This document shows positions 19,987-51,811 of a DNA stretch of 64,000 nt, one piece after another. Every line of letters starts with the position of its first letter. Position 1 is the stretch's first letter. A program made the translations under genes and the position numbers. The stretch comes from Escherichia phage HK6. The stretch lies in sequence record PP724615.1; one strand, written 5' to 3'. A model generated the notes under the pieces. The model did no database searches and had not been told where the DNA came from. It saw nothing but the letters and a program-made list of their open reading frames with translations.

Positions 19987-19998
19987 CGTATAAATTGT

Positions 19999-20765: not shown

Positions 20766-20770
20766 AAATT

Positions 20771-20844
20771 TGGTGGAGAAAGAGGGAGTTGAACCCTCGT
20801 CTTCTGCGTGCAAAGCAGATGTTCTACCATTAAACTATATCCCC
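20771..20844 (-). tRNA. tRNA-Ala (TGC)
   Basis: T-arm GAGGG-TTCAACT-CCCTC; anticodon arm TCTGC-TTTGCAC-GCAGA. Confidence 0.65.
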
Positions 20845-21129: not shown

Positions 21130-21209
21130 TGGTAGATCGCCTGGGACTCGAACCCAGAACCTTCCGATTAAAAGTCGGATGCTACTAAACCTATTGAGCT
21201 AGCGATCTA
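21130..21209 (-). tRNA. tRNA-Lys (TTT)
   Basis: Acceptor AGATCGC/GCGATCT; anticodon arm TCCGA-CTTTTAA-TCGGA; T-arm CTGGG-TTCGAGT-CCCAG. Confidence 0.7.
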
Positions 21210-21397
21210 TTAGTAACCATTATACACTTCTTTAATAGAGTGGACTTTTAAGTAAGGGTGATTAGTACTAAACTCTACCATTACTTCATCCCAATTTTTA
21301 CCGTAATGAGCAAGTAAGGATTTTGATGTATTCTTACCTGAACGTTTGTCACTTACTACTAATCGAAATACTTTCATTTCGAAATCCCCTATTAAAA

Positions 21398-21474
21398 TGG
21401 AAGCGGGTGCAGGAATCGAACCTACCTCTTTCTAGCTTATGAGACTAGTGATCTCTACCAGAGATCTAACCCGC
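21398..21474 (-). tRNA. tRNA with CAT anticodon (Met/fMet/Ile2-type)
   Basis: Anticodon arm CTAGT-CTCATAA-GCTAG; T-loop TTCGATT; acceptor pairing imperfect, ends approximate. Confidence 0.5.
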
Positions 21475-21481
21475 AATTGTT

Positions 21482-21557
21482 TGGTCAGTGCGGCAGGACT
21501 CGAACCTGCGACCCGAAGCATCCAAGGCTCCCACGCTACCAACTGCGCTACGCACTG
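21482..21557 (-). tRNA. tRNA-Pro (TGG)
   Basis: Acceptor CAGTGCG/CGCACTG; anticodon loop CTTGGAT; T-arm GCAGG-TTCGAGT-CCTGC. Confidence 0.75.
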
Positions 21558-21566
21558 TTAATTCTT

Positions 21567-21764
21567 TTATTGTGGAGGAATATTAATAATTCGTCCATCT
21601 ACACAATAAACGGTACTAGGAATCGTACTATATATGTAGAAATTCTTTATATTACTCTCTCCGCCACAGAAATTTTTAGCAAATTCATACTCTTTATTAA
21701 TGGTTGAGTCAAATTTAAAACAACCAGTAAGTAGGAATACAGATAGTAATAAAACTTTCTTCAT
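21567..21764 (-). CDS. Small lipoprotein (65 aa)
   Basis: Signal peptide with lipobox LLTGC; promoter module upstream. Confidence 0.5.
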   Translation of the reverse strand: MKKVLLLSVFLLTGCFKFDSTINKEYEFAKNFCGGESNIKNFYIYSTIPSTVYCVDGRIINIPPQ

Positions 21765-22217
21765 TTAGCTTTCCTTCTCTTCACTTTATAAGATATATTA
21801 TACAGAGAATTAAGCAGAATAGCAAATGAATTTTTAATAAATTTACTTATTGTGTAGGCCACCTGGAGGCTACCAACCCCACGGCTGACAAAGAAGTTTG
21901 CGAGACCTCTCTTAAATGCCAGAATAGACCCGCCGATCTATCGGAACCTACATAATAAGTAAACTTTATAGTGTCATTCTAGACAGGACTCGAACCTGTT
22001 ATCACTTGTGCGGACTTACGAGAACCATTCTTTCACTCGAATCGAACGAGCTTCTGCCCTCGCCAAGCTGGTTTCCCCATCAACCACGCTAGAATGTTTG
22101 ATTATTTTCAGTGCAAGAGTCCGAGTCTTGGACACGACCGCTTCGCAAGTACATAGGCTGCTTATCATGAGTCAGCACTTCCGAATTGCTAGCTCCGTGT
22201 TCTGCACTGAAATTTTG

Positions 22218-22565
22218 TTAATTTAACAGTAAAGTACGATCTACTTCACCATTAATTGTTCGGCATTCTTCTGGGATCTCTGGTGTAGCCTTATATTCCC
22301 ACCATTCAGAACCGTCGTATTCACCACGTTCTAACCAAGTTCCATCAGTAAACCACACGTTACCATAAAGCAATTGCCCACCATAACCAGAATCATATTT
22401 AAAGTCTAGATTATTTAGAAAATCTTCAATATCTTTTTCTGTATAACCTACGGGCAATACCCAAACTTCTTTGTCTCCATAATAACCGAATTCTATCTTA
22501 ATACACTTAACTTCAGAATTAGTATTCTTTAGGGCAAGTAACAACTCTTCTTTAGCATTAATCAT
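22218..22565 (-). CDS. Hypothetical protein (115 aa)
   Basis: ORF track. Confidence 0.5.
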   Translation of the reverse strand: MINAKEELLLALKNTNSEVKCIKIEFGYYGDKEVWVLPVGYTEKDIEDFLNNLDFKYDSGYGGQLLYGNVWFTDGTWLERGEYDGSEWWEYKATPEIPEECRTINGEVDRTLLLN

Positions 22566-22591
22566 AGCATATTTCTCGTGCTAGTTTAGTT

Positions 22592-22667
22592 TGGTACACC
22601 CACTAGGACTTGAACCTAGAACCCCCCGCTTAAGAGGCGGTAGCTCTAACCATTGAGCTATGGATGT
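22592..22667 (-). tRNA. tRNA-Lys (CTT) by eye
   Basis: Acceptor ACATCCA/TGGGTGT; anticodon loop CTCTTAA; T-arm CTAGG-TTCAAGT-CCTAG. Confidence 0.55.
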
Positions 22668-22843
22668 ATTAAATTACTTTTTCCAGTTCATCAGCTATGG
22701 CTTTGATTTTTTCAAAGTTTACATCACTTATAATGATACCTTCCAGTGACAGAGATATTCTAGCATTTTTTATAGCAGATTCTTTTATCTGCTCTATCTC
22801 TTCTGGAGTAAACTCCCTACGTTCCATAGCTAACCTACCTTAT

Positions 22844-22920
22844 TTGGCGCGACCGATGGGATTCGAACCCACATTCTCTCCCGTGACAGGGGAGTACCAT
22901 TACCAAACCAGCCCCGGTCG
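22844..22920 (-). tRNA. tRNA-Asp (GTC)
   Basis: Acceptor GCGACCG/CGGTCGC; anticodon arm CTCCC-CTGTCAC-GGGAG; T-loop TTCGAAT. Confidence 0.7.
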
Positions 22921-22930
22921 CATAATTCAT

Positions 22931-23116
22931 TTACTCAGCTTTGAGTTTTTCAATAGCTGCATTAAGTTCCTTAAGAAACTCTTTTCGTACATTAAGACGA
23001 TTAAGACTTACTAGTATATCATGTTTAAGTTCTTCGATGTATTTCTTCTCAACTTCAATATTGTTGATAGTGCTATCACGATGAACTTCTAGCTGTGCAA
23101 TTACATTCTTGGACAT
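22931..23116 (-). CDS. Hypothetical coiled-coil protein (61 aa)
   Basis: ORF track. Confidence 0.35.
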   Translation of the reverse strand: MSKNVIAQLEVHRDSTINNIEVEKKYIEELKHDILVSLNRLNVRKEFLKELNAAIEKLKAE

Positions 23117-23230
23117 GCTTGTTTCCTCAGTTATTAATGAAAATGGTATCTGTGGCTGAATTCGATGTCAGCAATGATAGCTGGTTGGCTACCGGTTTAC
23201 TTAACTCTACACAGAATTTGGCGGGCCGTG

Positions 23231-23313
23231 TAGGATTCGAACCTACGTTGTCTTTCGACACGGATTAACAATCCGCCGCCAAACCGCTTGGCTAACGACC
23301 CTAAATTTATATT
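23231..23313 (-). tRNA. tRNA, anticodon GTT (Asn-type) with unusually long variable arm (83 nt)
   Basis: Acceptor GGGTCGT/ACGGCCC; D-stem GCCA/TGGC; anticodon arm GCGGA-TTGTTAA-TCCGT; 13-nt variable arm; T-arm GTAGG-TTCGAAT-CCTAC. Confidence 0.6.
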
Positions 23314-23453
23314 GCTGACTAGGATTTTCACCTAGACGGAGTTAGCACCGTAGCGTGTAGCGGCATACCTCTCCAAACCGTGCCTCATCTTTCAATTACG
23401 GAGACAGTGTTCCTACGCGTGCCTGAATTGTTTTAACAATTCTTTCAGCAAAT

Positions 23454-23529
23454 TGGACGACCGCATGAGATTTGAACTCACATAAAAAGGATTTGCAATC
23501 CTTCGCCTAAGCCATTCAGCCAACGGTCG
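23454..23529 (-). tRNA. tRNA-Cys (GCA)
   Basis: Anticodon arm AAGGA-TTGCAAA-TCCTT; T-loop TTCAAAT; acceptor CGACCGT/GCGGTCG. Confidence 0.65.
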
Positions 23530-23598
23530 ATTTATCTTATTCTATCATGTTGCTTCTCCAGTTCAATTTATGTAATTATTATACAGAACTTTTGGAAA

Positions 23599-23886
23599 CT
23601 AAGCAACTACATTTTTTAAAAATTTGATGCCTTTCTTTTTCTTCTTATATTTCCACGTTAATGGATTCTGTCGATTATGAACGCTTGAGATCTTTGTCTC
23701 GTCAAAGTTCTTCAATATCATGTAATCACAAGATAATTGTTCTAGTGGAATGTGATCACCATCAAAAGCATATACATAAGGCTGTTGACTAGCACGATAA
23801 TGATAGACTTTGTTAATTCTACGTTTCAGCGACTTATCCGCGCAGTAAATAAAGAAGTTTTCAGGATGCATCAGCAGCTCCTTCAA
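23599..23886 (-). CDS. Hypothetical protein (95 aa)
   Basis: Promoter module upstream at about 23540-23620. Confidence 0.5.
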   Translation of the reverse strand: MKELLMHPENFFIYCADKSLKRRINKVYHYRASQQPYVYAFDGDHIPLEQLSCDYMILKNFDETKISSVHNRQNPLTWKYKKKKKGIKFLKNVVA

Positions 23887-23888
23887 AT

Positions 23889-23963
23889 TGGTGCACCCTG
23901 TTCGTATCGAACGAACCTCTCAAGCTCTTCAGGCAAGCGCTAATCCATCTCAGCTAAAGGTGC
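23889..23963 (-). tRNA. tRNA-like, possible Phe (GAA), weak anticodon stem
   Basis: Good acceptor (GCACCTT/AGGGTGC) and T-arm (GTTCG-TTCGATA-CGAAC) but the anticodon stem has two mismatches; may be degenerate. Confidence 0.4.
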
Positions 23964-23969
23964 AAATTT

Positions 23970-24040
23970 TGGCAGGGGTAAAGGTATTCGAAACCTTTTC
24001 ATGGGTTTTGGAGGCCCATTTGCAACCTATGCGTACCCCA
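23970..24040 (-). tRNA. tRNA-Trp (CCA) candidate, short D region
   Basis: T-arm AAGGT-TTCGAAT-ACCTT; anticodon loop CTCCAAA; only about 71 nt, 5' end approximate. Confidence 0.45.
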
Positions 24041-24049
24041 ATTATTAAT

Positions 24050-24124
24050 TGGCACACCCAACGAGGATCGAACTCGTGTTCCCACTGTGAAAGAGTAGTG
24101 TCCTAACCGCTAGACGATAGGTGC
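24050..24124 (-). tRNA. tRNA-Glu (TTC)
   Basis: D-stem GTCT/GGAC; anticodon arm CTACT-CTTTCAC-AGTGG; T-arm ACGAG-TTCGATC-CTCGT. Confidence 0.7.
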
Positions 24125-24131
24125 ATTAAAT

Positions 24132-24219
24132 TGGTGGGCGTTAATGGAGTCGAACCACTCGAGTCGCAATGACCAGGGATTTACAATCCCCTCCGCTACC
24201 ACTTACGGAATAAACGCCC
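24132..24219 (-). tRNA. tRNA-Tyr (GTA), long variable arm
   Basis: Anticodon arm GGGGA-TTGTAAA-TCCCT; D-arm TTCC..GG.AG resembles bacterial tRNA-Tyr; acceptor GGGCGTT/AACGCCC. Confidence 0.7.
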
Positions 24220-24417
24220 AAATTCTCTTTAAGGTAGCCAGTGTTACCGCACTGACTAGGAGTTATCGGTAAAATGGTGGGGGCCATCTGCCAAAAATTT
24301 ACTCTGCTAAAGTAAGAACTACCTTAAAAAGAACTTTCCAAATTAGATAAATATTATACCAAGTTTTATAGTATTGGGCAAGTCAAATTTTAAAGAACTT
24401 GCCCAATGCTGTATTAG

Positions 24418-24693
24418 TTAGTCGAACTTAGGAGTGACAGTTAAGGAGAATGGAAGTTCGAAAACTTCTTCCCCCTCATTACTAACGGTAACTACACGAC
24501 CTTTAAGTTCAGACATTGAAATATCAATATCAGCTTTTGCATCCGGAGCCATGCCAGCTTCAACACATTTAGCTTTAATTTCCGGCAGAAGTTCTACATC
24601 GTAGAAATAAAGCCATTCAATCTCACCTTCCCAGCCTTCCCAGGATTTACAGATTGCACTTTCAATACCAGCTGCTATAACACGATTTTGCAT
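24418..24693 (-). CDS. Hypothetical protein (91 aa)
   Basis: Promoter module upstream at about 24700-24770. Confidence 0.5.
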   Translation of the reverse strand: MQNRVIAAGIESAICKSWEGWEGEIEWLYFYDVELLPEIKAKCVEAGMAPDAKADIDISMSELKGRVVTVSNEGEEVFELPFSLTVTPKFD

Positions 24694-24783
24694 TCATTAA
24701 CTCCTTCATCAATTTATATAACTATTATATCAGAAATTTAAAGCAAAAGGCAAGTACATTTTTAAAAATTCTGTTTGGAGGAG

Positions 24784-24990
24784 CTAAACTCCAGATTCTT
24801 CAGCCAAGTCTAGACTAATAAGAGATATAGCCATAATTGCCGCTCCATGTTCTTTTTCTCCAGTTTCTTTAGCTAGAGTTATAATATCAAGAAATTGCTT
24901 ATGAAAATCTGCAACCTCTTGAGTTAAACCCGCCTCAGCAATCATACCTTTAAGCATGAAACGTTGTGCGGTAATTTCAGGATTAGCCAT
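24784..24990 (-). CDS. Hypothetical protein (68 aa)
   Basis: ORF track. Confidence 0.4.
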   Translation of the reverse strand: MANPEITAQRFMLKGMIAEAGLTQEVADFHKQFLDIITLAKETGEKEHGAAIMAISLISLDLAEESGV

Positions 24991-25164
24991 GTTGTTTCTC
25001 CAGTTTCATCTTTAATAGTCTACAAATAAAATCAATGTCTTCATCCGTGCCTAGATCTCTATCTTCAAGAGTTGCCTTGAAGTTTTTAGTCAACTCCATG
25101 AGAATAACTTCTCTAGAACGACGTGTTGGCGGAGGTGGATGTCTATACATCTTATTTCCTTAAT

Positions 25165-25241
25165 TTGGTAGGGGTGGTGGGATTCGAACCCACAAAACCT
25201 GAATTTTAAGTCCAGTACCTATGCCAATTCGATTACACCCC
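25165..25241 (-). tRNA. tRNA with TAA anticodon (Leu-type) but short variable arm
   Basis: Acceptor GGGGGTG/CACCCCT; anticodon arm CTGGA-CTTAAAA-TTCAG; T-arm GTGGG-TTCGAAT-CCCAC; 77 nt. Confidence 0.55.
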
Positions 25242-25343
25242 CATGTAATCAGTTTATTAGTTGATACATATTATAGCCTAGTGAAAATCCTACTACTAGT
25301 CCCACAAACCAACCAATATAGTAATCTTTTAGTTTCACAGGTA

Positions 25344-25529
25344 TTATCCTCGTTCAATATCTAGGGAAATACCACAGTTAGGATTAATACCTGTACCATT
25401 GCAATTTGGGCAAACCCAGATATTGCAAAAAGTATCTCCTGCTTCTGCATCAGAACTTTCACCAATTCCCCTACACTCAGGGCAGGCACATTCTTCTAGC
25501 TCTTGCTTGAGTTCTTGAAACTTGGACAT
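25344..25529 (-). CDS. Small zinc-ribbon protein (61 aa)
   Basis: CPECRG...CPNCNG Cys pairs. Confidence 0.45.
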   Translation of the reverse strand: MSKFQELKQELEECACPECRGIGESSDAEAGDTFCNIWVCPNCNGTGINPNCGISLDIERG

Positions 25530-25538
25530 ATAGTCTCC

Positions 25539-25727
25539 TTAGTCAATTACTTTTGAGGCTTCTAAAGCATTGACGTAGTAAACATCTTCTACATTATACA
25601 TATAGTCTACTACTTTGTCCATAGCATGGAGTTCGGATGTAGCCTTTACTAGTCTGTACCCTTGTTTAAACTCGTCCGAACGTTCTCTATCTTGTGCAAA
25701 TTTAACAGAAACTATGAATAATTCCAT
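25539..25727 (-). CDS. Hypothetical protein (62 aa)
   Basis: ORF track. Confidence 0.4.
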   Translation of the reverse strand: MELFIVSVKFAQDRERSDEFKQGYRLVKATSELHAMDKVVDYMYNVEDVYYVNALEASKVID

Positions 25728-25745
25728 TAATTGTCCTTATTTAAT

Positions 25746-25823
25746 TTGGTGGCTCCCCGAGGATTCGAACCTACGTACCTACCGGTTATGAGCCGGGTGC
25801 TCATACCATATGAGCTTGAGAAC
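25746..25823 (-). tRNA. tRNA with CAT anticodon (Met/fMet/Ile2-type)
   Basis: Acceptor GGTTCTC/GGGAGCC; D-arm GCTCA-TATGGTA-TGAGC; anticodon loop CTCATAA; T-loop TTCGAAT. Confidence 0.6.
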
Positions 25824-25829
25824 CAAAAT

Positions 25830-25918
25830 CTGGCGGAAGAAGTGGGAATCGAACCCACAAGGCTATATTTCAAACCGACAGATTAGCAATCTGCTGCAAT
25901 ACCGTTATGCTATTCTTC
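25830..25918 (-). tRNA. tRNA-Ser (GCT), long variable arm
   Basis: Acceptor GGAAGAA/TTCTTCC; anticodon arm GCAGA-TTGCTAA-TCTGT; T-arm GTGGG-TTCGATT-CCCAC. Confidence 0.7.
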
Positions 25919-25940
25919 CGAATTTATAAGATATATTATA

Positions 25941-26510
25941 TTAGAAATTTAGCTTCATAGCAAGAAAATTTTTCAAGTTTTCGGTAGACATCTCATCCAC
26001 ATCTACAGGAGAAACAAATCCATTTAATTTTCTAGCAAATTTTTCACCAGCAGGATCGTTGTCCCCGACAGCTACTAATTTAAAAGGTAATAATTTCAAT
26101 TGCTTTAATAACGCTTTTCCTGGAGAAGAACCCAACATTGCCAGGGCTGGGTAACCAGCATTATGTAACGCAACTGCCTTAAATACAGATTCAGCGATCA
26201 ATACTACTTTTTCATCTCCATTGAGAGTTTCTAGTCCCCATACACACTGGGTAGTAGAATAAGTAAAGTATTTAGCTTCAAAGGGGCACTTACCATGACC
26301 TTTTGGAGCAGAAGGATTGTAAGTTTGATAGCCCCTCAACATCCCAGAGAAGTCATACAACGGGACAGTTAGCCATCCTTCCGGACTTAACCAGCAATGA
26401 TATTTATCTGTATCAAATCCTCTAGATAAGAGGTGCTGTGTTAGCTCATCAACATTCATATTTGGTTCCTCTCTCAAATTTATAGATATATTATACAGAG
26501 AATTTAGCAT
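25941..26510 (-). CDS. Toprim-domain protein (189 aa)
   Basis: VAVGDNDPAGEKFARKL resembles the Toprim DxD acidic motif; no zinc-binding primase domain. Confidence 0.5.
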   Translation of the reverse strand: MLNSLYNISINLREEPNMNVDELTQHLLSRGFDTDKYHCWLSPEGWLTVPLYDFSGMLRGYQTYNPSAPKGHGKCPFEAKYFTYSTTQCVWGLETLNGDEKVVLIAESVFKAVALHNAGYPALAMLGSSPGKALLKQLKLLPFKLVAVGDNDPAGEKFARKLNGFVSPVDVDEMSTENLKNFLAMKLNF

Positions 26511-26634
26511 TCAAGCAATCAAATTTTTTAACTTTTTAGAGGAGAATCATAGGGCACTTAAGGGTAGCAGATAAGTGGTGAGGACCAAAATTTGTGACCC
26601 CACTAAAAATCCGGGGGCAATTTTTAAAGATCCC

Positions 26635-26663
26635 TTGACATTTTCGCTGGGGTAGTGTAAAGT
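26635..26663 (+). promoter_or_regulatory. sigma70-like promoter (TTGACA, 17 bp, TAAAGT) for the plus-strand operon
   Basis: Perfect -35 hexamer, weaker -10; shares the 13-mer TTGACATTTTCGC with the promoter at 55633. Confidence 0.5.
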
Positions 26664-26725
26664 ATATGTTATGGATGAGTGATCAAAGAGACACACATTT
26701 TCTATATACTAGGAGGTGTCAAAAA

Positions 26726-27718
26726 ATGACAGAAGAAGTAGCTAAGAGTCCTGAGACCGTCGCTAGCGTTGCAGCAGAACTGCACCGTCACGAGGAATCA
26801 GATAAGAAAAAGTGGGAGAAGGTCAGAGCCTACGAAGAAAAACATCGTGAACACGATGAAGATGATAAAGAAGATGACGATGATGAGCATTGTCATAAAT
26901 ATGGAAAACATAAAATGCAAGAACCAGTAAACGTATTTACTAGTGGCTTCCCTGGCCTACTGGGTGGTTACCCAGCAAACGCAGGTGCTTTCGGTGGTGA
27001 AGGTATGGGACTATTCGGAGCTATCCTAATCGGTGCTCTATTAACAGGCGGATTCGGTGGATTCGGTGGATTCGGTGGACGTGGTATAGTTGGTGATGGT
27101 ACCGCAGTTGATGCAGTACTTCAGAACCAAGATACCGCTAGTATTCTAGCAGCTATTAACACTACTCGTACAGAAGCTAATCAGGGTACTGGAGCTGTTT
27201 TAAGCGCAGTTAACAATGGTTTTAGCCAGACATCCCAAAACCAGAGCCGTGATACTCAGTCTGTACTAACTACGATCTATGGTACGGGTGCTAATCTGTC
27301 TAATCAAATCTGCCAGGAAACTCGCAACGTTATTCAGGGTCAGTTCGATCTTTCTCGCCAGATTGATCAATCTTTCGCAGCTAACCAGATAGCTCGTGCA
27401 CAAGATAAGTTTGATTCTGCACAGATCGCTTTCCAGCAGACTTTACAAACTAATAACCAGTTTGCCGCTGTTCAGGCTCAGATGTGTGCTAACCAGAACT
27501 CTCTGGAACGTCAGATTGCTGAATGTTGCTGTGAACTTCAGACTGCGATCGCTGGTGTAACTACTGCGCGTATCCAGGATGAGTTAGATGCGTGTCGCCT
27601 ACGTGAAGCAATCGCTGCGGGTAGCGGTGCTAACGGTCAGGTAATTAATCAAATCGCTTTAAGTCTTGGTACTATCACTCAGACTCTGGCTGGTCTGCAG
27701 GCTAAACTGCCGGCTTAA
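26726..27718 (+). CDS. Low-complexity membrane protein, acidic N-terminus, GGFGGFGGFGG segment, Q/T/N-rich C-terminus (330 aa)
   Basis: Start at the ATG 8 nt after AGGAGG (track ORF begins 26666); hydrophobic glycine-zipper GMGLFGAILIGALLTGGFGGFGGFGGRG; no family recognised. Confidence 0.65.
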   Translation: MTEEVAKSPETVASVAAELHRHEESDKKKWEKVRAYEEKHREHDEDDKEDDDDEHCHKYGKHKMQEPVNVFTSGFPGLLGGYPANAGAFGGEGMGLFGAILIGALLTGGFGGFGGFGGRGIVGDGTAVDAVLQNQDTASILAAINTTRTEANQGTGAVLSAVNNGFSQTSQNQSRDTQSVLTTIYGTGANLSNQICQETRNVIQGQFDLSRQIDQSFAANQIARAQDKFDSAQIAFQQTLQTNNQFAAVQAQMCANQNSLERQIAECCCELQTAIAGVTTARIQDELDACRLREAIAAGSGANGQVINQIALSLGTITQTLAGLQAKLPA

Positions 27719-27739
27719 TATTAAGGGGAGGAGCCCATT

Positions 27740-28156
27740 ATGAGTAAATATGGTTTTGTAAATAACGGACTTAATCAAAGTATGGGCTCCCAGCAGCCCA
27801 TTCCGGGTCTGGATAACCCCTACTTACAACAGTTGCAACAGCGTTTAGCAGAAGCGCAACAGATGCAGCAACAACTCCAGCAAAACCCTGGAAGTGTAAG
27901 TCCTATGCAAATGATGCAGCAAATGAGCGGGCAGTCGCAAATGCCTCAACAAATGCAGCAACAGATTCCGCAGCAGCAAGTTCAGCAACAAACCCAACAA
28001 CCGCAGGTTTCTGCGGAAGGACAGGCAGTACTAGCCCTTTTCGAAGACTTCGCAAAGACAGAGGATGGAAAACAGCTTGTATCACTTATGGGTAAGTTTA
28101 ATAGCTTCTGCCAAAGCCAAGTTGCAAAAGCTCAAAATGGTGGTAATAACTCCTAA
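27740..28156 (+). CDS. Gln-rich low-complexity protein (138 aa)
   Basis: RBS GGGGAGGAG; about 40 percent Q in the central region. Confidence 0.6.
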   Translation: MSKYGFVNNGLNQSMGSQQPIPGLDNPYLQQLQQRLAEAQQMQQQLQQNPGSVSPMQMMQQMSGQSQMPQQMQQQIPQQQVQQQTQQPQVSAEGQAVLALFEDFAKTEDGKQLVSLMGKFNSFCQSQVAKAQNGGNNS

Positions 28157-28165
28157 GGAGGAATT

Positions 28166-28360
28166 ATGTGTTGCAGAAAATCTGTTTCGTGCTGCCCAAT
28201 GCCTGTAGCACGTTGTTGCTCTCCAGCAATGTTTACGCAAATACCGGCGTTCAATCCGTTTGCCTTTAAGCCTACTCTTATCCTGCCCCCTAGAGTAGAT
28301 TTTCAGTCAAGATTGGCCTCCCGTATGGGTGGTTGCTGTAACAAGAGTATATGGTTCTAA
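28166..28360 (+). CDS. Small Cys-doublet protein (64 aa, four CC pairs)
   Basis: RBS AAGGAGG; MCCRKSVSCCPMPVARCC...GGCCNKSIWF. Confidence 0.55.
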   Translation: MCCRKSVSCCPMPVARCCSPAMFTQIPAFNPFAFKPTLILPPRVDFQSRLASRMGGCCNKSIWF

Positions 28361-28375
28361 GGAACCAAACAATAA

Positions 28376-28406
28376 AGCCCCTAAGTCTTTCGACTAGGGG
28401 CTTTTC
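28376..28406 (+). terminator. Rho-independent terminator ending the plus-strand operon
   Basis: GCCCCTAG..CTAGGGGC stem followed by TTTTCTTTT. Confidence 0.75.
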
Positions 28407-28426
28407 TTTTATCTTAAATACAGAAA

Positions 28427-28455
28427 AGCCCGCGCTTTCGGAGAAAACGCGGGCT
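28427..28455 (-). terminator. Rho-independent terminator downstream of SPFH gene
   Basis: AGCCCGCG..CGCGGGCT stem followed on the minus strand by TTTTCTGTATTT. Confidence 0.7.
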
Positions 28456-28479
28456 TGGTTCGAAGATTACGTGTAACTA

Positions 28480-29427
28480 TTACTTGTTACGCATATCCAT
28501 AATCATTTGACCATCATAGCCAGTGCCAACTACAGTCTGAGGTACACCACCTTGATACTTCTGAGCACGAATCATTTCAACTTCCAGTTGCTTCCAGCGA
28601 ATCATCTCAGGAGTAATGGTACGTTGCAATGCGGCGTTAGCTTCAGCTTCTTTCTTAGCTGCGTACAGTTTAGCATCTGCGTCACGTTCATTAGCAATAG
28701 CTTGGTTGTTGCGAGCCTCACGATCTGCTTCTGCTTGTTTAACTTTTTGCTGTGCTTCCTGTTCAACGCGAGCGAGTTCAGCTTTCGCAGCATTAACTTG
28801 TTCTTCACGAACTTTGGTATTCTGTACCTGTTCCATGATTACCGGTGGCAAAGTAATATCCTGAAGAAACACCTGCTTAACTGTGTAACCATATGGGCGT
28901 GCATACTCTTCAACTTCCTGTTGAATTGCAGTTTGCAATTGAGCCTGAATTTTAGCATCAAATAAATCTTGTGCTTTAGGTACAGACTTACCAAACTCAC
29001 GAATAGTAGACAGTAATTTTTCAGTTACATATTTGTCTAACGCTTGATCCTGAGTACCTGCGTTAATACGGTTAATCGGTGCCTTAGAACCATCAAACTG
29101 CAACATAACAGTCAAGTCAACAGTGGATTTAAACTTGTCCTGGCTAGGAACCTGAAGTTTATCTAATTTTACAGCAATATCTTTTGTACTAAAAGTATCA
29201 AAAGATGCAAACGGGTTTACAAGATGGAAACCAGGCAATACTGGATTAGGGTCTACTTTACCCAGGAATGTTTGGGTTTTAACCGTACCATCAGAAACAA
29301 TAGTATATGAATTAAAAGCTAGGATTAAACCTGCTAAACCAACTACAGCACCAATACCCCAACGTTTAATAGTACGAATTACTTTCTGCTCAGAAGTCAG
29401 TTCTTTCATATTTTTAGTATTAAACAT
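28480..29427 (-). CDS. SPFH/band-7 (stomatin/prohibitin-like) membrane protein (315 aa)
   Basis: N-terminal TM, SPFH-like core, long Ala/Gln/Glu-rich coiled coil. Confidence 0.7.
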   Translation of the reverse strand: MFNTKNMKELTSEQKVIRTIKRWGIGAVVGLAGLILAFNSYTIVSDGTVKTQTFLGKVDPNPVLPGFHLVNPFASFDTFSTKDIAVKLDKLQVPSQDKFKSTVDLTVMLQFDGSKAPINRINAGTQDQALDKYVTEKLLSTIREFGKSVPKAQDLFDAKIQAQLQTAIQQEVEEYARPYGYTVKQVFLQDITLPPVIMEQVQNTKVREEQVNAAKAELARVEQEAQQKVKQAEADREARNNQAIANERDADAKLYAAKKEAEANAALQRTITPEMIRWKQLEVEMIRAQKYQGGVPQTVVGTGYDGQMIMDMRNK

Positions 29428-29461
29428 ATATTTCCTTTGTTTTAGTTACAGTTAATAAAAT

Positions 29462-29536
29462 TGGCCGAGGTGACAGGATTCGAACCTGCATAAAGGAATT
29501 TAGAAGACTCCTGCCTCTCCCTTAGACTACACCCCG
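29462..29536 (-). tRNA. tRNA-Arg (TCT)
   Basis: Acceptor CGGGGTG/CACCTCG; anticodon arm GGAGT-CTTCTAA-ATTCC; T-arm GCAGG-TTCGAAT-CCTGT. Confidence 0.65.
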
Positions 29537-42058: not shown

Positions 42059-42820
42059 TTACACCTTCCCCATGTCTTTAAAAATATCATAGAATGCTTT
42101 AGACTCAACAGAACGAACGTTATCAATCAATTCGATCATTGAGAATGGGGCATTTTCGTATTTCTCATAGACTTCCATAAGGAGTGCTAGACCTGAGTCA
42201 CCTTTAATGTCTTTCTGAGCTATATCTCCGCAGATAATTAAACGGCAGTCTTGTCCTACACGAGTTAGGAGACAAATCATTGCCTCAACGGAAATATTCT
42301 GAGCTTCATCGACAATTACATAGGAGTTGTTGAAAGTTCTGCCACGAGCATGTTCGATAGCCAAAAATTTAATTTTCTGACGTTCGACATATCCTTTATA
42401 TGCATGATCGCCGATGGCCCATTTCATACCATCAGCTATTGGCTCCAACCAAGGTTCTAGCTTTTCCGCTAGATCACCAGGAAGCATACCAAGAGACTTG
42501 CCTAGAGGTTCATTAGGACGTACGAGAATCACTTGCTCAATATCTGAGTGAATGTCTACGAGTTCCTGAGCTGCAAGAACGGACGGAATAAAGGTTTTAC
42601 CAGTACCCGGCTCACCGATACCCACAGTCACTGTGTTGTTCTTGATCATATTGATATATGATTTTTGCTCGCGGTTTTTACCTACTAGGGATTTAGCAAC
42701 TGGATTAGCGTAATCATTAGAAAAATCAGCCTGAATTACGTTGTTCTCATATTTGTTGCCACGCTTTCTTGAACCATTGCGGTTCTCTCTTTTTTGACGT
42801 GCTTTTCCCATAAATAACAC
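42059..42820 (-). CDS. phoH: PhoH-like ATPase (253 aa)
   Basis: Walker A GEPGTGKT and VIVDEAQN Walker B; RBS AGGAG. Confidence 0.85.
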   Translation of the reverse strand: MLFMGKARQKRENRNGSRKRGNKYENNVIQADFSNDYANPVAKSLVGKNREQKSYINMIKNNTVTVGIGEPGTGKTFIPSVLAAQELVDIHSDIEQVILVRPNEPLGKSLGMLPGDLAEKLEPWLEPIADGMKWAIGDHAYKGYVERQKIKFLAIEHARGRTFNNSYVIVDEAQNISVEAMICLLTRVGQDCRLIICGDIAQKDIKGDSGLALLMEVYEKYENAPFSMIELIDNVRSVESKAFYDIFKDMGKV

Positions 42821-43105
42821 TCCTATAGTGTACTTCGCTAACAGAGGATCAACAAAAAGATCTTGTTTATCAACTTACAAATATATTATACCAATATATA
42901 CAGTAAAAAGCAACTACAATTTTAAATAAGCCTATGATATTGCATTTAAATAAAAAATTTGCTTGCTTTTAACGTGAGATGTGTGATACTAGATAATCAT
43001 TTTATATCGCGTGCACGAGTGCGTGATTATACAATTTTTAATAGAGATTGGCAAATAAAATTTTTTGACTCAGATCATGTTACAGAACTTTATAGTAAAA
43101 TATTG

Positions 43106-43134
43106 TTGACATCCGCCCTCGAATGAGTTATAAT
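43106..43134 (+). promoter_or_regulatory. Consensus sigma70 promoter (TTGACA, 17 bp, TATAAT) upstream of nrdD
   Basis: Perfect -35 and -10 hexamers with 17-bp spacer; about 30 bp before the nrdD RBS. Confidence 0.75.
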
Positions 43135-43163
43135 AGTAGTCTTAGTTAGAGAAGGAGAGTATA

Positions 43164-45038
43164 ATGAATCGCAATGAAGAACTAAAGTATAAAGAAATGC
43201 AGGCGTTAATTAGAAACTGCAAAGAGATTATCGAAGGGTCAGCAGATGAAGAGCTGCTGTTTAATAATGCTAATAAACCCTCAGAACGTTTCCCTACACA
43301 AAGGGATATGCTTGCAGGTGAGTTGAGTAAGTATCTGATTCTAGAAGAAATGCCAATTCAGATTCGAAATGCTCATATGATTGGGGATATTCATTTCCAT
43401 GATGCTGATTATGCTGCATTAGGCATGACTAATTGTTGTCTGGTAGCTCTGGAAGATATGTTAAAGAATGGTATGAAGGTTGGTAATGCTGAAATTAGCA
43501 CTCCAAACTCTATTACCACTGCGGCGGCTATTACTGCTCAAATTATCACTCAGGTTAGCTCCCATCAGTATGGTGGTACTTCTGTAGATCGCCTTGATGA
43601 AGTATTAGCCCCTTATGTTCGTAAATCCTATGACAAAAATCATGCGTTTGCAAAACGTTGGACTAAGGATGAAGCCAAAGCATCCGTAATGGCTACGGAG
43701 ATGACTGAAAAAGAAGTCTATGACGCTTGTCAGGGTTTAGAATATGAAATCAATACCATGTTCAACTCTAATGGTCAGAGTCCATTTATTACCTTTGGTT
43801 TTGGTCTAGGAACTTCTTGGGAAGCACGTCTAGTACAGAAAGCAATACTGAAAGTACGCATGGATGGTTTAGGTATCAATAAACGTACAGCTATCTTCCC
43901 AAAACTGGTATTTGTACTTCGTGATGGTGTTAACATGAAACCAGGAGATGTTAATTATGACATCAAGAAGTTAGCTATGAAATGTACTGCTGAACGTATG
44001 TATCCAGATTATATCAGCTATGACAAGGTTGTAGAAGTTACTGGAGACTACAAAGTTTCTATGGGCTGCCGTTCATTCCTAGCTGCTACAGAAGATGGTG
44101 AAACTGCCGGTCGTAATAACTTAGGTGTTGTTTCTGTAAACTTGCCTAGAATTGCTATCGAAGCTGAAGGAAATATTGACCTATTCTTTGATTTGCTTGA
44201 GCTACGTGTGGATACAGCGTTAAAAGCATTGGAGTGGAGAGTTGATCGCTTAAAATACATTCAAGCTAAAGCTGCACCTATCCTCTATATGTCCGGAGCC
44301 TTTGGGTTACGCTTGGGGCCTGATGAGTATGTGTTCGATCATTTCTATAACCGTGCTTCTGTATCTCTAGGGTATATTGGTTGCCATGAAATGCTACAGT
44401 TCATGTTTGGCAAAGATGTAGACACAATGTCCGAGACCTGCATCAAGTTTGTTCAGCGTGTATTGCAGTACATGCGGGATAGAGTCGATCAGAAGAAGGA
44501 AGAGACTAAGTTAGGTTATAGCTTGTATGCTACACCGTCAGAGTCCCTATGCGATAGGTTTTGCCGTTTAGATCGTGAATATTTCCCAGAGCATGAAGAT
44601 ATTCTGTCTAAAGGATACTACACTAACTCGCACCACCTTGATGTAGAACGTAAAGTTGCTCCCAATGTGAAATTTGATTATGAATCTAACTTTACTCCTA
44701 TTGCTTCTGGTGGGTGCATTTCCTATGTAGAACTACCAGATATGAAACGATTCCCAGATGCACTGGAATGGGTTATTAATTATGCTGCTAGTAAAGTTCA
44801 TTACTTCGGTATTAATACTCCAGTGGATTCTTGTGGTAAATGTGGATTCTTAGGTGAAACAGTAGCATCCGAAGATGGGTTTAAGTGCCCTATCTGTGGT
44901 AATCATGACCCCGAAACTCTTGAAGTAACTCGTCGAGTTTGTGGGTATCTTGGAAATCCAGGTGCTCGTCCATTTAACCCCGGCAAACAGCACGAGGTAA
45001 TGGGCAGAGTGAAGCATCAAGATATTCGAGCTAAGTAA
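43164..45038 (+). CDS. nrdD: Anaerobic ribonucleoside-triphosphate reductase (624 aa)
   Basis: C-terminal zinc ribbon CGKCGF...CPICG and glycyl-radical motif RVCGYLG. Confidence 0.9.
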   Translation: MNRNEELKYKEMQALIRNCKEIIEGSADEELLFNNANKPSERFPTQRDMLAGELSKYLILEEMPIQIRNAHMIGDIHFHDADYAALGMTNCCLVALEDMLKNGMKVGNAEISTPNSITTAAAITAQIITQVSSHQYGGTSVDRLDEVLAPYVRKSYDKNHAFAKRWTKDEAKASVMATEMTEKEVYDACQGLEYEINTMFNSNGQSPFITFGFGLGTSWEARLVQKAILKVRMDGLGINKRTAIFPKLVFVLRDGVNMKPGDVNYDIKKLAMKCTAERMYPDYISYDKVVEVTGDYKVSMGCRSFLAATEDGETAGRNNLGVVSVNLPRIAIEAEGNIDLFFDLLELRVDTALKALEWRVDRLKYIQAKAAPILYMSGAFGLRLGPDEYVFDHFYNRASVSLGYIGCHEMLQFMFGKDVDTMSETCIKFVQRVLQYMRDRVDQKKEETKLGYSLYATPSESLCDRFCRLDREYFPEHEDILSKGYYTNSHHLDVERKVAPNVKFDYESNFTPIASGGCISYVELPDMKRFPDALEWVINYAASKVHYFGINTPVDSCGKCGFLGETVASEDGFKCPICGNHDPETLEVTRRVCGYLGNPGARPFNPGKQHEVMGRVKHQDIRAK

Positions 45039-47838: not shown

Positions 47839-48231
47839 ATGGAACAAGTATATTGGCGTCAGATTGACCCTAGTTTGGTGAAGCGTGCGGAAAAGCTGCT
47901 ACAACGTTGGTTAGGGGTAAGGCAAGCCTCCTTCACTTTTCCGGAGCAGCAAACGGATGATCCCTGCATTGGCGTTTTCCTGTCTGGATATGCCGGGGAA
48001 TGGGAGATGGACTGGAATGAATTGTCAGCTATGGGTTTAATTGTTGCCCTAAACTTCTCTATATTCCATCCACGTGGTTTGGCCATATGTCGCGTGCCTG
48101 ATGACGGTTGTTCGCCCCATCTTTTACAGGTGGAAAATGATATTTGGGAGTACACTCCAGATATTCTCGCAGAAGCTAAAGAACAATTAAATCGTGTTGG
48201 GATTTATGTTCCGGGATTAAATGATGAATAA
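47839..48231 (+). CDS. Hypothetical protein, paralog B (130 aa)
   Basis: Tandem paralog of 47401-47829. Confidence 0.55.
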   Translation: MEQVYWRQIDPSLVKRAEKLLQRWLGVRQASFTFPEQQTDDPCIGVFLSGYAGEWEMDWNELSAMGLIVALNFSIFHPRGLAICRVPDDGCSPHLLQVENDIWEYTPDILAEAKEQLNRVGIYVPGLNDE

Positions 48232-48418
48232 GGAATTTTGGAAAATAAAAGGGAAGATTTCTAAGTGGAATACTACAGGGAAAATTAGTAAGTCTCTAGA
48301 GATAGAGATAGCTAGAATGTTTACTGATCCTAATTTTGATATAGAAAAACTAAGCAAAGTAGATGCTAAAAAAGTAGATAAGTATATAGAAGAGATTAGA
48401 AGTATTTTAAGTGTCTAA
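48221..48418 (+). CDS. Hypothetical protein (65 aa)
   Basis: ORF track. Confidence 0.35.
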   Translation: MMNKEFWKIKGKISKWNTTGKISKSLEIEIARMFTDPNFDIEKLSKVDAKKVDKYIEEIRSILSV

Positions 48419-48494
48419 TCCACGTAACCGAGTCATTTTGGCTCGGTTTTATCCGTACTCAAGACCAATGATAGCACCATCCGGAAAATTTTAC

Positions 48495-48523
48495 TTGCAG
48501 GATGCCCAAAATCTTGATATAAT
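48495..48523 (+). promoter_or_regulatory. Early-type promoter (TTGCAG, 17 bp, TATAAT) at the start of a long leader
   Basis: TTGCAGgatgcccaaaatcttgaTATAAT; about 500 nt before the next start codon. Confidence 0.5.
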
Positions 48524-49021
48524 ATTTATATTGAATTGAGAGACATTAGTAAAAATTGATTTTGCTAATTTTTCTTGTTTACAATCCGCGATACGGAACA
48601 GTTAGGCTGCCCCATTAAGGGTTGTTTTAACTGTTACGTGTTAGTTTTTAAACAAATAGTTAATAGAATACTTAGCGATCTACATCCCGTAGGAACCCTG
48701 GTAAGGCCTCGAAGCAACCTAGTGTGAGGTGGTTGTGAAGTGAGACGGGAAGAGTGAAAAACTCTGAGAAGTGATGACGTAAGGTATACTGCATCTAGTA
48801 TGAGCTAGTACATGAAGCATTAGGTGAGCAAATCTGGCTTAGCGGCCATCCTCAAGGATTTGTGCGGTATAGTGAAGCGGCAGTGTAGCGTGAAAGGGGA
48901 AGTTGCCACCCCCCTTCAGTATTTGCGATTAATTGTTGAGAAATTGACAGTAACAGTTGTTCTATTCTTTCTGAATAGTCCTAAAGAAAACTTATTTCAT
49001 TTCCAACACAGGAGTATTGTT

Positions 49022-51811
49022 GTGTTCTCAATCCTACAAGGTCATGCAGGATTTCATCGCGACTTAGCCACAGGCATTTGGCGAGAAGTTAAAGCAGAAG
49101 ACTATCTTTTTGCTAAAAGATTTTCCTCAAAGCATCCTGAAGGTAAACCAGCTTCAATGCCCTTCAAGTTTGATGTAATTGATGAAGTTGATCCTCAAAC
49201 CCTAGTAGAAATGCTCCCTCTTATGAGACGTTTAACGTCTGACCCTCATATCGTTGCGGTACGAGGTCGATGTCTTGCACCCAAAAATAACGTGCGGCGT
49301 AAGAAGGGCAACTTTAATGTATCTAACCCAAGTCATATAATTGCATTGGACGTGGATGGTATTGTAGATACAGGTGGTTGTAACAAGTTTGATCTTGTTG
49401 GCATGGCTCGACATATTATTAGGATGTTAAATAGTATTAGTGAGGATATGTTTCCTCTTGATGCAGGGTTTATTGCTCATGCATCGTCTTCGGCTGGGCT
49501 AAAACCAGGTATCCGAATGCACTTAATACTAGAATCTAATGTTAAAGTAACTCAGGGTCAAATCAAATTCTTATTTACATCTATCAACGAAAGTAGTAGA
49601 CAAAAGTATGGCTTTGATATTGCCGACTTAGCTTATTACTCTTCCGTACAGCTCCATTATTTTGCAGATCCGTTATTTACCGATGGTATAGTAGATCCGT
49701 TTAAAGCGGAGGGTGCCTCACGTCTGGTATTTGTTAAGGGTTCTAAAGTAAATTTACCTAATAATCTGGTTGACTATGAAACAACTAGAGGTGAGTTTAA
49801 AGAGGAGTTCTACTCTTTACTCGACCAAATTAAGGGTAAAAAAGCTGCCTCTGATAAAGTAGAGGAAACTATCAGCGAACTAGAAGAAGCTGAGGATGGA
49901 GTGTACCTACGTATTATACCTAAACTCTATCATAGAGCTTTGGAGGATGGTGTTGATTTTGCATGGCTAGAAAAAGAAATCCGTCCAGCCTTATCAGAAT
50001 ATATTGCAACTAAAGATAATAGTCGCAATATTCAAGATTACTTTAATAACGGTCGTAAGCAGGCTCTAAAAGCATTTGTTAATAATTCTAAACGTGATAT
50101 ACCTGATGTTTTAAAAGGTATTCCACTTAAAAAGCTAGAAACTAACTCTCTAGAAACTGATAACTTCTTGAAATTAAATACTGTACCACCAGAAGGTTAT
50201 ATGACTTTTGTAAAAGCAAGTCTAGGTACAGGTAAAACTACGGCGGTTGTGCGTTGGTTAGATTCAGGAGTTATTAAAGGTAATTTCTTAGCAATTACCA
50301 ATACTCGAGCACTGGTATCTTCAAATGCTAAGAAATTTAGTGCAGGACAATATGATAAGTCTGTAGATATGCTTAATTTTAAGCGTGGCGCTATTGACCG
50401 TATGTCCACAACTATACATTCTTTGCATAAGTTCAAGAGTTTTATTGGTCAAATTGATGCAATCTTTATCGATGAATGTGATGCTGTAATGAATGACCTA
50501 TTATTCGCCCCGGTTGTTAAACAACGTCGTGAATGTATTCAGGTTCTTCGGGATATTCTTGCAACTGCAAAAATCATTATATTATCTGATGGGGATATTA
50601 GTGCAGAAACAATTGAAGCATACGGTTCTTTGATTGAGTTTGATAAACCAGTAGCATTTTATAATCATCACCGTAAGATGCTGTCAAAAGCTCATGCTTA
50701 TGAGTTCCCTGACGAATCCAGTATTTGGGTTGCACTTCAGACTTCTCTAGAGATGGGTGAGAAATCTATCCTAGTATCTGACTGTGGTCCAGATGAACTG
50801 AATGAGAAGGGCATGGCGTTGCGTCGTAATACGGGTGCGTTAGTTAAGGAAATCCACTCAAACTCTACGTCTGATGTAGATATTCGACGTATTCTGGATT
50901 ACACAACTAATGAGTTAATTGACCAACAAATTGATTGCTTATTATGTAGCCCATCCGTAACGAGCGGTGTTGACTTTAACTATTTTGATAACGTATTCGT
51001 TATTACTAGGACCAGTAACCAAGCGCCAAACATGCGTTTTCAAGCAATCAGGCGCGACCGTGGCGCTCAGAACATTTATTATTTTATTGATAAATCTACG
51101 AGTGGATTCTCCGCAGGTTCTGAGCAATATAACATTGACGAGGGTTGGCTGGAGTTAGCACAGCAATTATACGCACGTCGCAGAGAGCTGGAATCTAGGA
51201 ACTATACTAGTACTTTACGTTACTATTTGCTTGATCAGGGTGCAACTATTGATATTTTCAGTGAAAGCTGGGGAACTATCGAAGGTGCGGGGAAAGAATA
51301 TACAGAAGAGCGAATCAAAGCCATTTTGTATTCAACCCCTGATTATTGTGCTCCACGCCATGCAGATGCGTATGAAGCTAAACTACTTCTTGTACGCTAT
51401 TATCATCTTGAGTCTATTAAAGATGTAACAGTTGAGCATGTTGAACAATATATCAAGGATAAACCGAATGATCGAGCTGCATTCTTCCATAAGATGCACG
51501 AGATGTTCTGGGAAGATATTAAGAAGTGTTCAAATGTCACTATCAAACCATTCATAGAAGCTCTGAAAGGTAAGAAGAAAGATTTCTTCCTTAAAACAGG
51601 TCAGAGTGCTAACCCAAAATATGCAAGAATGTATCTTGGTATGATGGGTATTGGTAAGGATATGAACACGGAGAATATTGTAGACTGGTACAGAACCTAT
51701 TGTAAAATCGAGTGTATGCCAATCCCATATAAGTTTATGACTGATGAGGAGAAACATATGCATGATGAAGCAATGGCAGAGCTAGGTGCTAGAAATGACA
51801 GTGAAGAATAA
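49022..51811 (+). CDS. SF2 helicase-like ATPase, putative replication origin-binding protein (929 aa)
   Basis: Walker A SLGTGKTT and DExD-like IFIDECD; start set at GTG 49022, 7 nt after AGGAG, not the track start 48824. Confidence 0.75.
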   Translation: MFSILQGHAGFHRDLATGIWREVKAEDYLFAKRFSSKHPEGKPASMPFKFDVIDEVDPQTLVEMLPLMRRLTSDPHIVAVRGRCLAPKNNVRRKKGNFNVSNPSHIIALDVDGIVDTGGCNKFDLVGMARHIIRMLNSISEDMFPLDAGFIAHASSSAGLKPGIRMHLILESNVKVTQGQIKFLFTSINESSRQKYGFDIADLAYYSSVQLHYFADPLFTDGIVDPFKAEGASRLVFVKGSKVNLPNNLVDYETTRGEFKEEFYSLLDQIKGKKAASDKVEETISELEEAEDGVYLRIIPKLYHRALEDGVDFAWLEKEIRPALSEYIATKDNSRNIQDYFNNGRKQALKAFVNNSKRDIPDVLKGIPLKKLETNSLETDNFLKLNTVPPEGYMTFVKASLGTGKTTAVVRWLDSGVIKGNFLAITNTRALVSSNAKKFSAGQYDKSVDMLNFKRGAIDRMSTTIHSLHKFKSFIGQIDAIFIDECDAVMNDLLFAPVVKQRRECIQVLRDILATAKIIILSDGDISAETIEAYGSLIEFDKPVAFYNHHRKMLSKAHAYEFPDESSIWVALQTSLEMGEKSILVSDCGPDELNEKGMALRRNTGALVKEIHSNSTSDVDIRRILDYTTNELIDQQIDCLLCSPSVTSGVDFNYFDNVFVITRTSNQAPNMRFQAIRRDRGAQNIYYFIDKSTSGFSAGSEQYNIDEGWLELAQQLYARRRELESRNYTSTLRYYLLDQGATIDIFSESWGTIEGAGKEYTEERIKAILYSTPDYCAPRHADAYEAKLLLVRYYHLESIKDVTVEHVEQYIKDKPNDRAAFFHKMHEMFWEDIKKCSNVTIKPFIEALKGKKKDFFLKTGQSANPKYARMYLGMMGIGKDMNTENIVDWYRTYCKIECMPIPYKFMTDEEKHMHDEAMAELGARNDSEE

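Follow-up and report, generated by a model that had tools for sequence, protein, structure and literature searches.

A conserved structured RNA predicted in the leader of the D2 helicase gene of T5-like phages

The D2 locus and the start of the gene

A 64,000-nt stretch of DNA from Escherichia phage HK6 (PP724615.1), here called the window, was analysed at positions 48,419 to 49,021, which lie directly upstream of D2, the gene of a helicase annotated as "replication origin binding". The window phage is T5-like (Tequintavirus). Its nearest relatives were Salmonella phages SPC35, Th1 and PK7, whose genomes showed 98–99% identity to it over 48200–49300. A terminator, a promoter, a leader of about 492 nt and D2 follow one another at this locus (Table 1). 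At the equivalent site of T5 (NC_005859), a terminator, a promoter, about 470 blank nucleotides and T5.108, "replication origin binding", are annotated. The best reading of the leader is that it represents a previously undescribed family of structured RNA, and not spacer, coding sequence or a classical double-stranded DNA origin.

The promoter at the 5' side of the leader was kept in every lineage examined, and transcription was predicted to start at about 48530. The promoter coordinates (48495–48523) given in a first-pass annotation, which had been made from the window sequence alone, were right, in agreement with the relatives and with the T5 annotation, in which a promoter stands at the equivalent position with the terminator before it. 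The −35 element of the window promoter matches the consensus at only 4/6 positions, which is why a simple consensus scan did not detect it. An A/T-rich discriminator, ATATT, has been published for T5 early promoters (PMC7472727). A weaker promoter-like site was seen at 48556–48585 on the plus strand (TTGATT, 18 nt, TACAAT); it overlaps the 3' half of the first leader hairpin (P1) and was not kept beyond T5-like phages.

The D2 protein matched PF02399 at residues 394–533, phrog_3712 across its full length, and solved herpesvirus origin-binding (UL9-type) proteins in the PDB. D2 of T5 has been studied biochemically and is a bipolar superfamily 2 (SF2) helicase (PMC3632103). The start of the gene, which sets the end of the leader, was examined by comparison with relatives. 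For this and the following comparisons, distinct upstream regions, at first 33 and later 42, were taken from IMG/VR and metagenomes and aligned; they are labelled with L-numbers. The mechanically called open reading frame (ORF) 48824–51811 has 995 codons, 66 more than the 929-aa reading from GTG 49022. In L013, a close relative, the frame is open for only 32 codons 5' of the D2 start and has no alternative start, and L064 has a stop codon immediately 5' of the D2 ATG. An ATG stands exactly at the position of the window GTG in L029, L063, L064 and L066, which represent four genera, and tblastn matches to D2 begin at residue 1. The comparison of sequences confirmed 49022 as the predicted start of D2, and the extension from 48824 appears to be peculiar to the window haplotype. 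The choice of GTG 49022, 7 nt after AGGAG, in the first-pass annotation was borne out, as was its doubt about the 66-residue extension. Its estimate of about 500 nt without a convincing ORF agrees with the 492 nt found here.

Structure and conservation of the leader RNA

The leader was matched by blastn in 535 phage records. Its length was 477–528 nt in Tequintavirus, Epseptimavirus, Klebsiella (Sugarlandvirus-like) and Pectobacterium phages and in one metagenomic relative. The leaders of Providencia phages (about 620 nt) and of a Proteus-like phage (770 nt) were longer. Five sequence blocks, GAUACGGAACAGUUAGGCUGCCCCAU, GAGAAGUG, GCUUAGCGGC, CAGUGUAG and GUUGCCACCCC, were found at near-constant spacing, and the sequence between them varied freely. 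In every lineage the structured RNA lay directly upstream of D2 in the same orientation. The leader is accordingly a conserved structured domain in the 5' untranslated region (UTR) of one and the same gene, as is expected of a cis-regulatory leader. A lack of conservation in relatives had been named earlier as a result that would speak against a functional leader; the leader was kept across genera.

The fold of the leader opens with a 5' hairpin (P1) and a conserved single-stranded block with a mini-hairpin (P2). A stalk of some 38 bp then carries the head, which measures about 245 nt, and a 3' hairpin lies roughly 30 nt 5' of the ribosome-binding site (RBS). The same architecture was obtained from separate minimum-free-energy (MFE) folds of eight lineages and from RNAalifold on two alignments. 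The whole of the approximately 0.5 kb is one architecture kept across genera, with two head alleles, which goes beyond what the first-pass annotation had expected. The positions of the individual parts are given in Table 1.

Table 1. Features of the D2 leader and its surroundings in the window.
Feature	Position	Strand	Details and basis
Rho-independent terminator of the upstream transcription unit	48426..48453	+	Stem CCGAGTCA/TGGCTCGG, then TTTT; inverted repeat I9; homologous T5 site annotated as terminator
Early sigma-70 promoter	48495..48523	+	−35 TTGCAG at 48495–48500, 17-nt spacer, extended −10 TGATATAAT at 48515–23
Whole structured leader RNA, ~492 nt, D2 5' UTR	48530..49021	+	Length conservation, no conserved ORF, no Rfam match
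P1, 5' hairpin	48538..48576	+	GAGAGA-C-AUUAGUAAAA / loop AUUGA / UUUUGCUAAU-U-UUUCUU; MFE and centroid folds
Most conserved block, holding P2	48590..48616	+	GAUACGGAACAGUUAGGCUGCCCCAUU; identical in window and T5 types; kept in Pectobacterium and Klebsiella phages
P2, mini-hairpin	48599–48609	+	CAGU-UAG-GCUG; compensated form CGGU/GCCG in L080
Stalk, 5' strand	48628..48672	+	Pairs with 48918–48959, ~38 bp in 5 segments
Stalk, 3' strand	48918..48959	+	Duplex energy across lineages
Left half of head	48674..48773	+	Model R3; helices 48685–90/48745–50, 48697–99/48704–06, 48708–11/48741–44, 48714–19/48731–36
Left-head hairpin	48751–55/48761–65	+	Followed by conserved GAGAAGUG at 48766–73
Right-head three-way junction	48785..48871	+	P6 48785–91/48865–71, P7 48792–99/48819–26, P8 48829–35/48856–62, P9 48836–39/48844–47
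Invariant CUUAGCGG	48838..48845	+	P9 loop and closing pairs; identical in 15/15 aligned sequences
Hairpin with conserved 11-nt loop (right-head helix 6)	48892..48917	+	GAA-GGGG / CCCC-UUC, loop AAGUUGCCACC; covarying
3' hairpin	48962..48978	+	CUAUUC-UUUCU-GAAUAG; compensated as CUUUCC/GGAAAG in L063, UACUAU/AUAGUA in L080, CUAUC/GAUAG in L029
Shine-Dalgarno sequence and start codon of D2	49010..49024	+	AGGAG 49010–14, 7-nt spacer, GTG 49022–24; comparative
D2, "replication origin binding" SF2 helicase gene, 929 aa	49022..51811	+	PF02399, phrog_3712 and PDB matches

The position of P1 is taken by a hairpin of other sequence in L063, L064, L029 and L080. The duplex free energy of the stalk was −32 to −46 kcal/mol in 8 lineages, with z from −4.3 to −5.9 against shuffles in six of the 8. 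The base of the stalk was compensated, with AACUGUUAC/GUAACAGUU in the window, AACUAUUAC/GUAAUAGUU in L025, GAUUAUUAUAC/GUAUAAUAAUU in L063, GGUUAUUAUAUA/UAUAUAAUAACC in L064 and GCUGCUAC/GUAGUGGC in L080. The lower stalk, 48628–49 paired with 48939–59, has 21 bp with one bulged G, which is enough for an RNase III stem (at least about 20 bp).

In the left head, a purine-rich internal loop with AA opposite GAAG lies between two covarying helices, and the helix 48714–19/48731–36 closes an 11-nt UAG...AGGU loop. In the right head, the invariant CUUAGCGG was also found in the Providencia and the Proteus-like phage. The hairpin at 48892–48917 showed a swap from G-C to U-A within the window type, and T5 has AUAUGA/UCAUAU there. 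The GC-rich self-complementary segment 48880–48915 pointed out in the first-pass annotation is this covarying hairpin. The 3' hairpin is not a terminator because no U-tract follows it; none follows any other leader hairpin either, so that transcription should run on into D2. A pairing partner of GAGAAGUG and CAGUGUAG was not found. Pseudoknot pairing of the AAGUUGCCACC loop with the GGUGG in the left-domain hairpin was considered and rejected, as the lineages did not support it consistently. Copies of GCTTAGCGGC elsewhere in the window (56034 and 57277, minus strand) were at chance level, and that at 57277 lies inside an ORF.

The folding energy of the window leader was weakly unusual, with z = −2.3 on both strands against shuffles; the L063 leader gave z = −5.7. 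The case for a structured RNA rests on the comparison with relatives because the window folding energy is only modestly below that of shuffles. Covariance models were built for this comparison. Model R1 covers the right head (48747–48923, 38 pairs) and was seeded with six window-type sequences and the author's structure; R2 is the right-head model rebuilt from a diverse alignment; R3 covers the left head (48674–48773, 24 pairs). The models were seeded from window-type sequences and then iterated because MAFFT alone misaligned divergent lineages.

The right head paired in 94.8% of cells, and 30/38 pairs had changed on both sides, a result that 0/500 shuffles reached; slid controls paired in 40–49% of cells, with 7–12 pairs changed on both sides. 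The left head paired in 97.4% of cells with 15/24 pairs changed on both sides, against 36–56% and 1–4 pairs in slid controls. RNAalifold alone on the right-head alignment gave the same helices, with 35 pairs, 31 of them compensated. R1 reached Pectobacterium, Klebsiella and metagenomic relatives (E 1e-14 to 1e-6), with L080 at E 5e-14 and L064, L063 and Klebsiella phages at 1e-8 to 1e-6, all at full length. R2 recovered the three-way junction in Epseptimavirus-type phages (E 5e-4), T5 (E 2e-3) and Providencia phages (E 7e-3), and gave a weak match with sensible pairs in the Proteus-like phage (E 0.7). R3 matched L080, L063 and L064 (E 1e-20 to 2e-6). G·U pairs outnumbered A·C pairs by 78 to 5 in one set and by 18 to 2 in the other, which indicates that the folding strand is the sense strand, the one transcribed from the conserved promoter. 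Folding and covariation across relatives had been proposed earlier as a check, and they yielded many covarying sense-strand helices.

The results also bear on the alternative that the interval is nothing special and consists of spacer, of the D2 extension from 48824 or of small unannotated genes. It could draw on the 2–5 "hypothetical proteins" that some GenBank records annotate in the leader interval, on the 66 open codons, and on the window z of only −2.3. However, neither the extension nor any ORF within the leader was conserved in relatives, and close relatives showed stops and non-triplet indels. The first 100 nt of the leader were 100% identical between the window and T5, whereas the flanking genes were 80–96% identical, and compensatory changes were extensive. 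A non-functional spacer or coding sequence is effectively excluded.

Known RNA families were searched for the leader. With Rfam 15 at gathering thresholds, only tRNAs were found in the window. A permissive Rfam scan of 48300–49200 (E ≤ 10) gave only three matches to snoRNA models, which are noise, and ROOL, GOLLD and OLE did not match the leader. The Rfam scan suggested in the first-pass annotation was run without a family match in the leader. A likeness to 5S rRNA (AACUC..AGAAGUGA) was rejected: z was −1.2 to 1.7 against shuffles in 8 lineages, with an E. coli 5S query, and the Rfam 5S model was silent. A gapped motif scan of IMG/VR with GAGAAGTG N60-78 GCTTAGCGG gave 29 loci, of which only the known T5-like ones fit the covariance model; the rest were due to chance. 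The literature search, which did not extend to the candidate list in the supplement of PMC10690425, found no description of the leader RNA.

Several further observations were made around the leader. L004, L033 and L024 carry a near-identical insertion of about 97 nt just after P1 (leader about 54–150, window about 48576). It is flanked by a TTTTTCTT direct repeat and is present on window-type and T5-type head backgrounds; the window is without a copy. MF774687 and phages ende and 26175II show the same length difference of about 100 nt. Two readings fit the insertion: a small mobile or indel element, or an extra hairpin that is optional. In L027, two promoters stand in tandem 5' of the leader.

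Long non-coding stretches 5' of D2 were also seen in distant Demerecviridae, with 1.6 kb in Aeromonas phage TS3 (L072, 218–1809), about 640 nt in Vibrio phage PG07 (L071, 1223–1860), and a further stretch in Vibrio phage GRLPWR (L070, 1160–1872). The PG07 stretch has a fold z of −3.4 and two direct repeats of about 56 nt that are 112 nt apart. Vibrio phage D254 (L069) has a 239-aa ORF 5' of D2 instead of a non-coding stretch. R2 and R3 detected no Vibrio phage leader and gave only marginal matches in Proteus-like and Aeromonas phages. No homology was detected by the models in the TS3, PG07, GRLPWR and D254 stretches, save for the CUUAGCGG hairpins of TS3: this phage, whose D2 is only 25% identical, carries two copies of the motif in its 1.6-kb leader, both in predicted hairpin loops.

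Directly before the terminator lies a 65-aa ORF (48221–48418, plus strand; phrog_29527, unknown function). It is missing in T5, L025 and L013 (alignment gap, 8–10% identity), and from these alignments it looks like a small accessory gene inserted in the window lineage. The tRNA genes of the window form a cluster at 17227–29536 on the minus strand, with 22 genes including 2 each for tRNA-Met, Gln, Lys, Leu and Ser, as is typical of T5-like phages.

Two head alleles and the N-terminal part of D2

The heads of the window and T5 types were 31–56% identical and nearly unalignable, within flanks of 80–100% identity, and their length and architecture were kept. L013 has a window-type head with Epseptimavirus-like upstream genes, so the head type recombines independently of the upstream flank. 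Perfect segregation with head type was found for 29/111 variable D2 residues, all within residues 36–419 and dense at 362–419. Head-associated nucleotide sites of D2 peaked at 1–450 and 1051–1350, with none beyond 1350. Over the first 1350 nt of D2, the nearest neighbour shared the head type in 34/34 sequences; over 1801–2400 it did so in 19/34, so that beyond about 1.8 kb the association is gone, and it was also absent upstream of the leader. The head and the N-terminal ~450 codons of D2 thus appear to be inherited as one block, which fits functional matching.

Residues 1–400 of D2 (49022–50221) contain D110-x-D112, S155/S157/G159 and R165-x-H167, which are invariant in phages of Escherichia through to those of Aeromonas and Vibrio. 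These residues are presumably comparable to the DxD and SGxGxH motifs of archaeo-eukaryotic primase-polymerases, a candidate likeness. The N-terminal domain gave nothing significant in Pfam or PDB profile searches, and a protein search with it gave two near-identical fragments only.

Possible roles of the leader and comparison with known systems

The role to which the evidence points, with modest confidence, is that of a cis-acting, protein-binding regulatory or processing element for D2. The leader RNA would act in cis with D2 and set the amount of D2 during the early phase. The invariant loops would form the recognition surface for a phage protein. The prime candidate for this protein may be D2 itself, through its N-terminal ~450 residues, because this part travels with the head allele. 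RNase III could plausibly cut within the 21 bp of the lower stalk, which would detach the head. The D2 mRNA would then begin at the conserved 3' hairpin, a possible 5' stabiliser.

Several points weigh against a cis-acting role. No conserved alternative pairing with the RBS or with a terminator, that is, no expression platform, was found; a pairing of 48588–94 with 49014–20 was predicted in T5-like sequences only, and the RBS region was otherwise unstructured. Second promoter-like sites lie between the RNA and D2 in a Proteus-like phage (L066, 1434–1463, 12/12 consensus) and one Pectobacterium phage (L063, 1404–1432), in which D2 may be expressible without the leader. The element of about 490 nt is far larger than known autoregulatory operators. 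The apparent co-inheritance of the head and the D2 N-terminal part can be explained by plain linkage. The covariation was counted on alignments fitted to the model and comes from about 6–8 independent lineages.

The first-pass annotation had offered a regulatory RNA or a replication origin. A structured sense-strand RNA is strongly supported by the comparison, and the iterons and DnaA boxes of an origin were not found. An RNA-dependent origin, at which transcription from the strong promoter would yield a structured preprimer or an R-loop RNA that primes DNA synthesis or loads D2, is rather unlikely. The two head alleles would then stand for two origin specificities, each matched to a D2 N-terminal domain. 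The leader lies directly upstream of the presumed initiator helicase, and its strong promoter precedes about 500 nt of non-coding, structured RNA, as in origins of the ColE1 RNA II type. Its first 60 nt are A/T-rich (29% GC), and the co-inheritance of the head with the N-terminal part of D2 would also suit an origin. The T5 copy of the element is at 59.0–59.5 kb of 121.75 kb, near mid-genome, and a 1976 electron-microscopy study reportedly placed a major T5 origin near the centre. T5 origins have never been mapped to sequence, and T5 replication was described with multiple origins in one study and as mainly unidirectional in another (PMC3632103, PMC10055335).

Against an origin, the leader contains no iterons or tandem repeats, 48419–49021 contains no DnaA box, and no repeat family beyond chance was found. 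A simple consensus scan, the only one used for this, detected no promoter on the minus strand within the leader. Cumulative GC skew is lowest at about 42–43 kb, about 5.5 kb upstream of the leader, at a switch of gene orientation. In the recombitron study, replication was mainly unidirectional from one genome end (PMC10055335). Known phage R-loop origins need no multi-helix head of 245 nt. A classical double-stranded DNA origin at the leader is unlikely because iterons, DnaA boxes and an antisense promoter are missing and the skew minimum is elsewhere. At about 42800–43170, where the genes switch from the minus to the plus strand (42.9–43.1 kb), the GC-skew minimum falls in a region of divergent promoters, which is an alternative origin candidate.

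A related proposal pairs the head with the N-terminal ~450 residues of D2 as an RNA-protein module of matched parts that would set the place and manner in which replication of T5-like phages begins, and in which the RNA is bound by its cognate D2 as an origin-specifying or primer-forming element. This is distinctly improbable. If it were true, the head alleles would be specificity types, analogous to plasmid incompatibility groups, and the long-sought T5 origin would be identified together with a new RNA-guided loading of an initiator.

The leader could also be a large stand-alone non-coding RNA (ncRNA) of the ROOL, GOLLD or OLE kind, acting in trans, possibly as a multimer or as a decoy against a host defence or enzyme, co-transcribed with D2 and perhaps excised by RNase III. 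The RNA is large and ornate, with over 60 base pairs supported and several loops invariant, which would suit such a role. So would the head, which is hypervariable between otherwise near-identical phages, as in an arms race, and the promoter-like sites between the RNA and D2 in L066 and L063. Ornate phage RNAs are known that assemble into RNA-only complexes (PMC12286853). However, the position directly 5' of D2 is fixed in all lineages with no terminator between, no Rfam match to the three families was obtained, the tRNA cluster is about 19 kb away on the other strand, and the haplotype block includes the N-terminal part of D2. A stand-alone ncRNA is accordingly regarded as a minor possibility.

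Whichever role applies, the annotation is corrected, with the D2 start at 49022 and no genes within the leader. Hundreds of GenBank records leave the leader region empty or annotate spurious small ORFs in it. T5 is a classical model and the type phage of the Demerecviridae, a large family with members in wide use for phage therapy and defence-system screens. With about 490 nt and its supported pairs, the RNA ranks with the larger structured RNAs of bacteria or phages to which no function has been assigned. It is a tractable new RNA for structural work, and the control of D2 and the start of T5 replication become testable questions in T5.

The leader was compared with four groups of known RNAs. 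Large-scale phage screens have yielded 10,006 candidate structured RNAs (PMC10690425). Like the leader, they rest on covariation seen between phage genes, 5' of a defined gene. The main text of that paper mentions no helicase or origin-binding leader, and fragments of the leader RNA may be among the candidates.

ROOL, GOLLD and OLE (Rfam; PMC12286853) are similar to the leader in their length of several hundred nucleotides, covarying helices, invariant loops, phage-borne occurrence and unassigned function. Unlike them, the leader has no covariance-model match, is fixed in a 5' UTR and not free-standing near tRNA genes, and has the enterobacterial Demerecviridae as its range.

ColE1 RNA II, the T4 origins ori(uvsY) and ori(34), and the promoter-transcript origins of T7 share with the leader a strong promoter, a structured non-coding transcript of about 500 nt and a position near replication genes, and allelic variation in the structured parts could set specificity. 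The leader differs from these origins in that no antisense RNA promoter was found, the transcript continues into a protein gene, and the GC-skew minimum is elsewhere.

The cis-acting reading is best compared with known long 5' leaders that control the downstream gene, namely the lambda N leader with its RNase III site, the operators of T4 genes 32 and 43, and the E. coli rpoS and rne leaders. The D2 leader is much larger and more elaborate than these, shows no conserved RBS sequestration and no sequence or Rfam relationship to them, and has two highly diverged head alleles. Like them, it occupies the 5' UTR of one conserved gene, with its own promoter and no terminator before the gene, has a long double-stranded stem suiting RNase III, and may have its protein partner in the product of the gene that follows.

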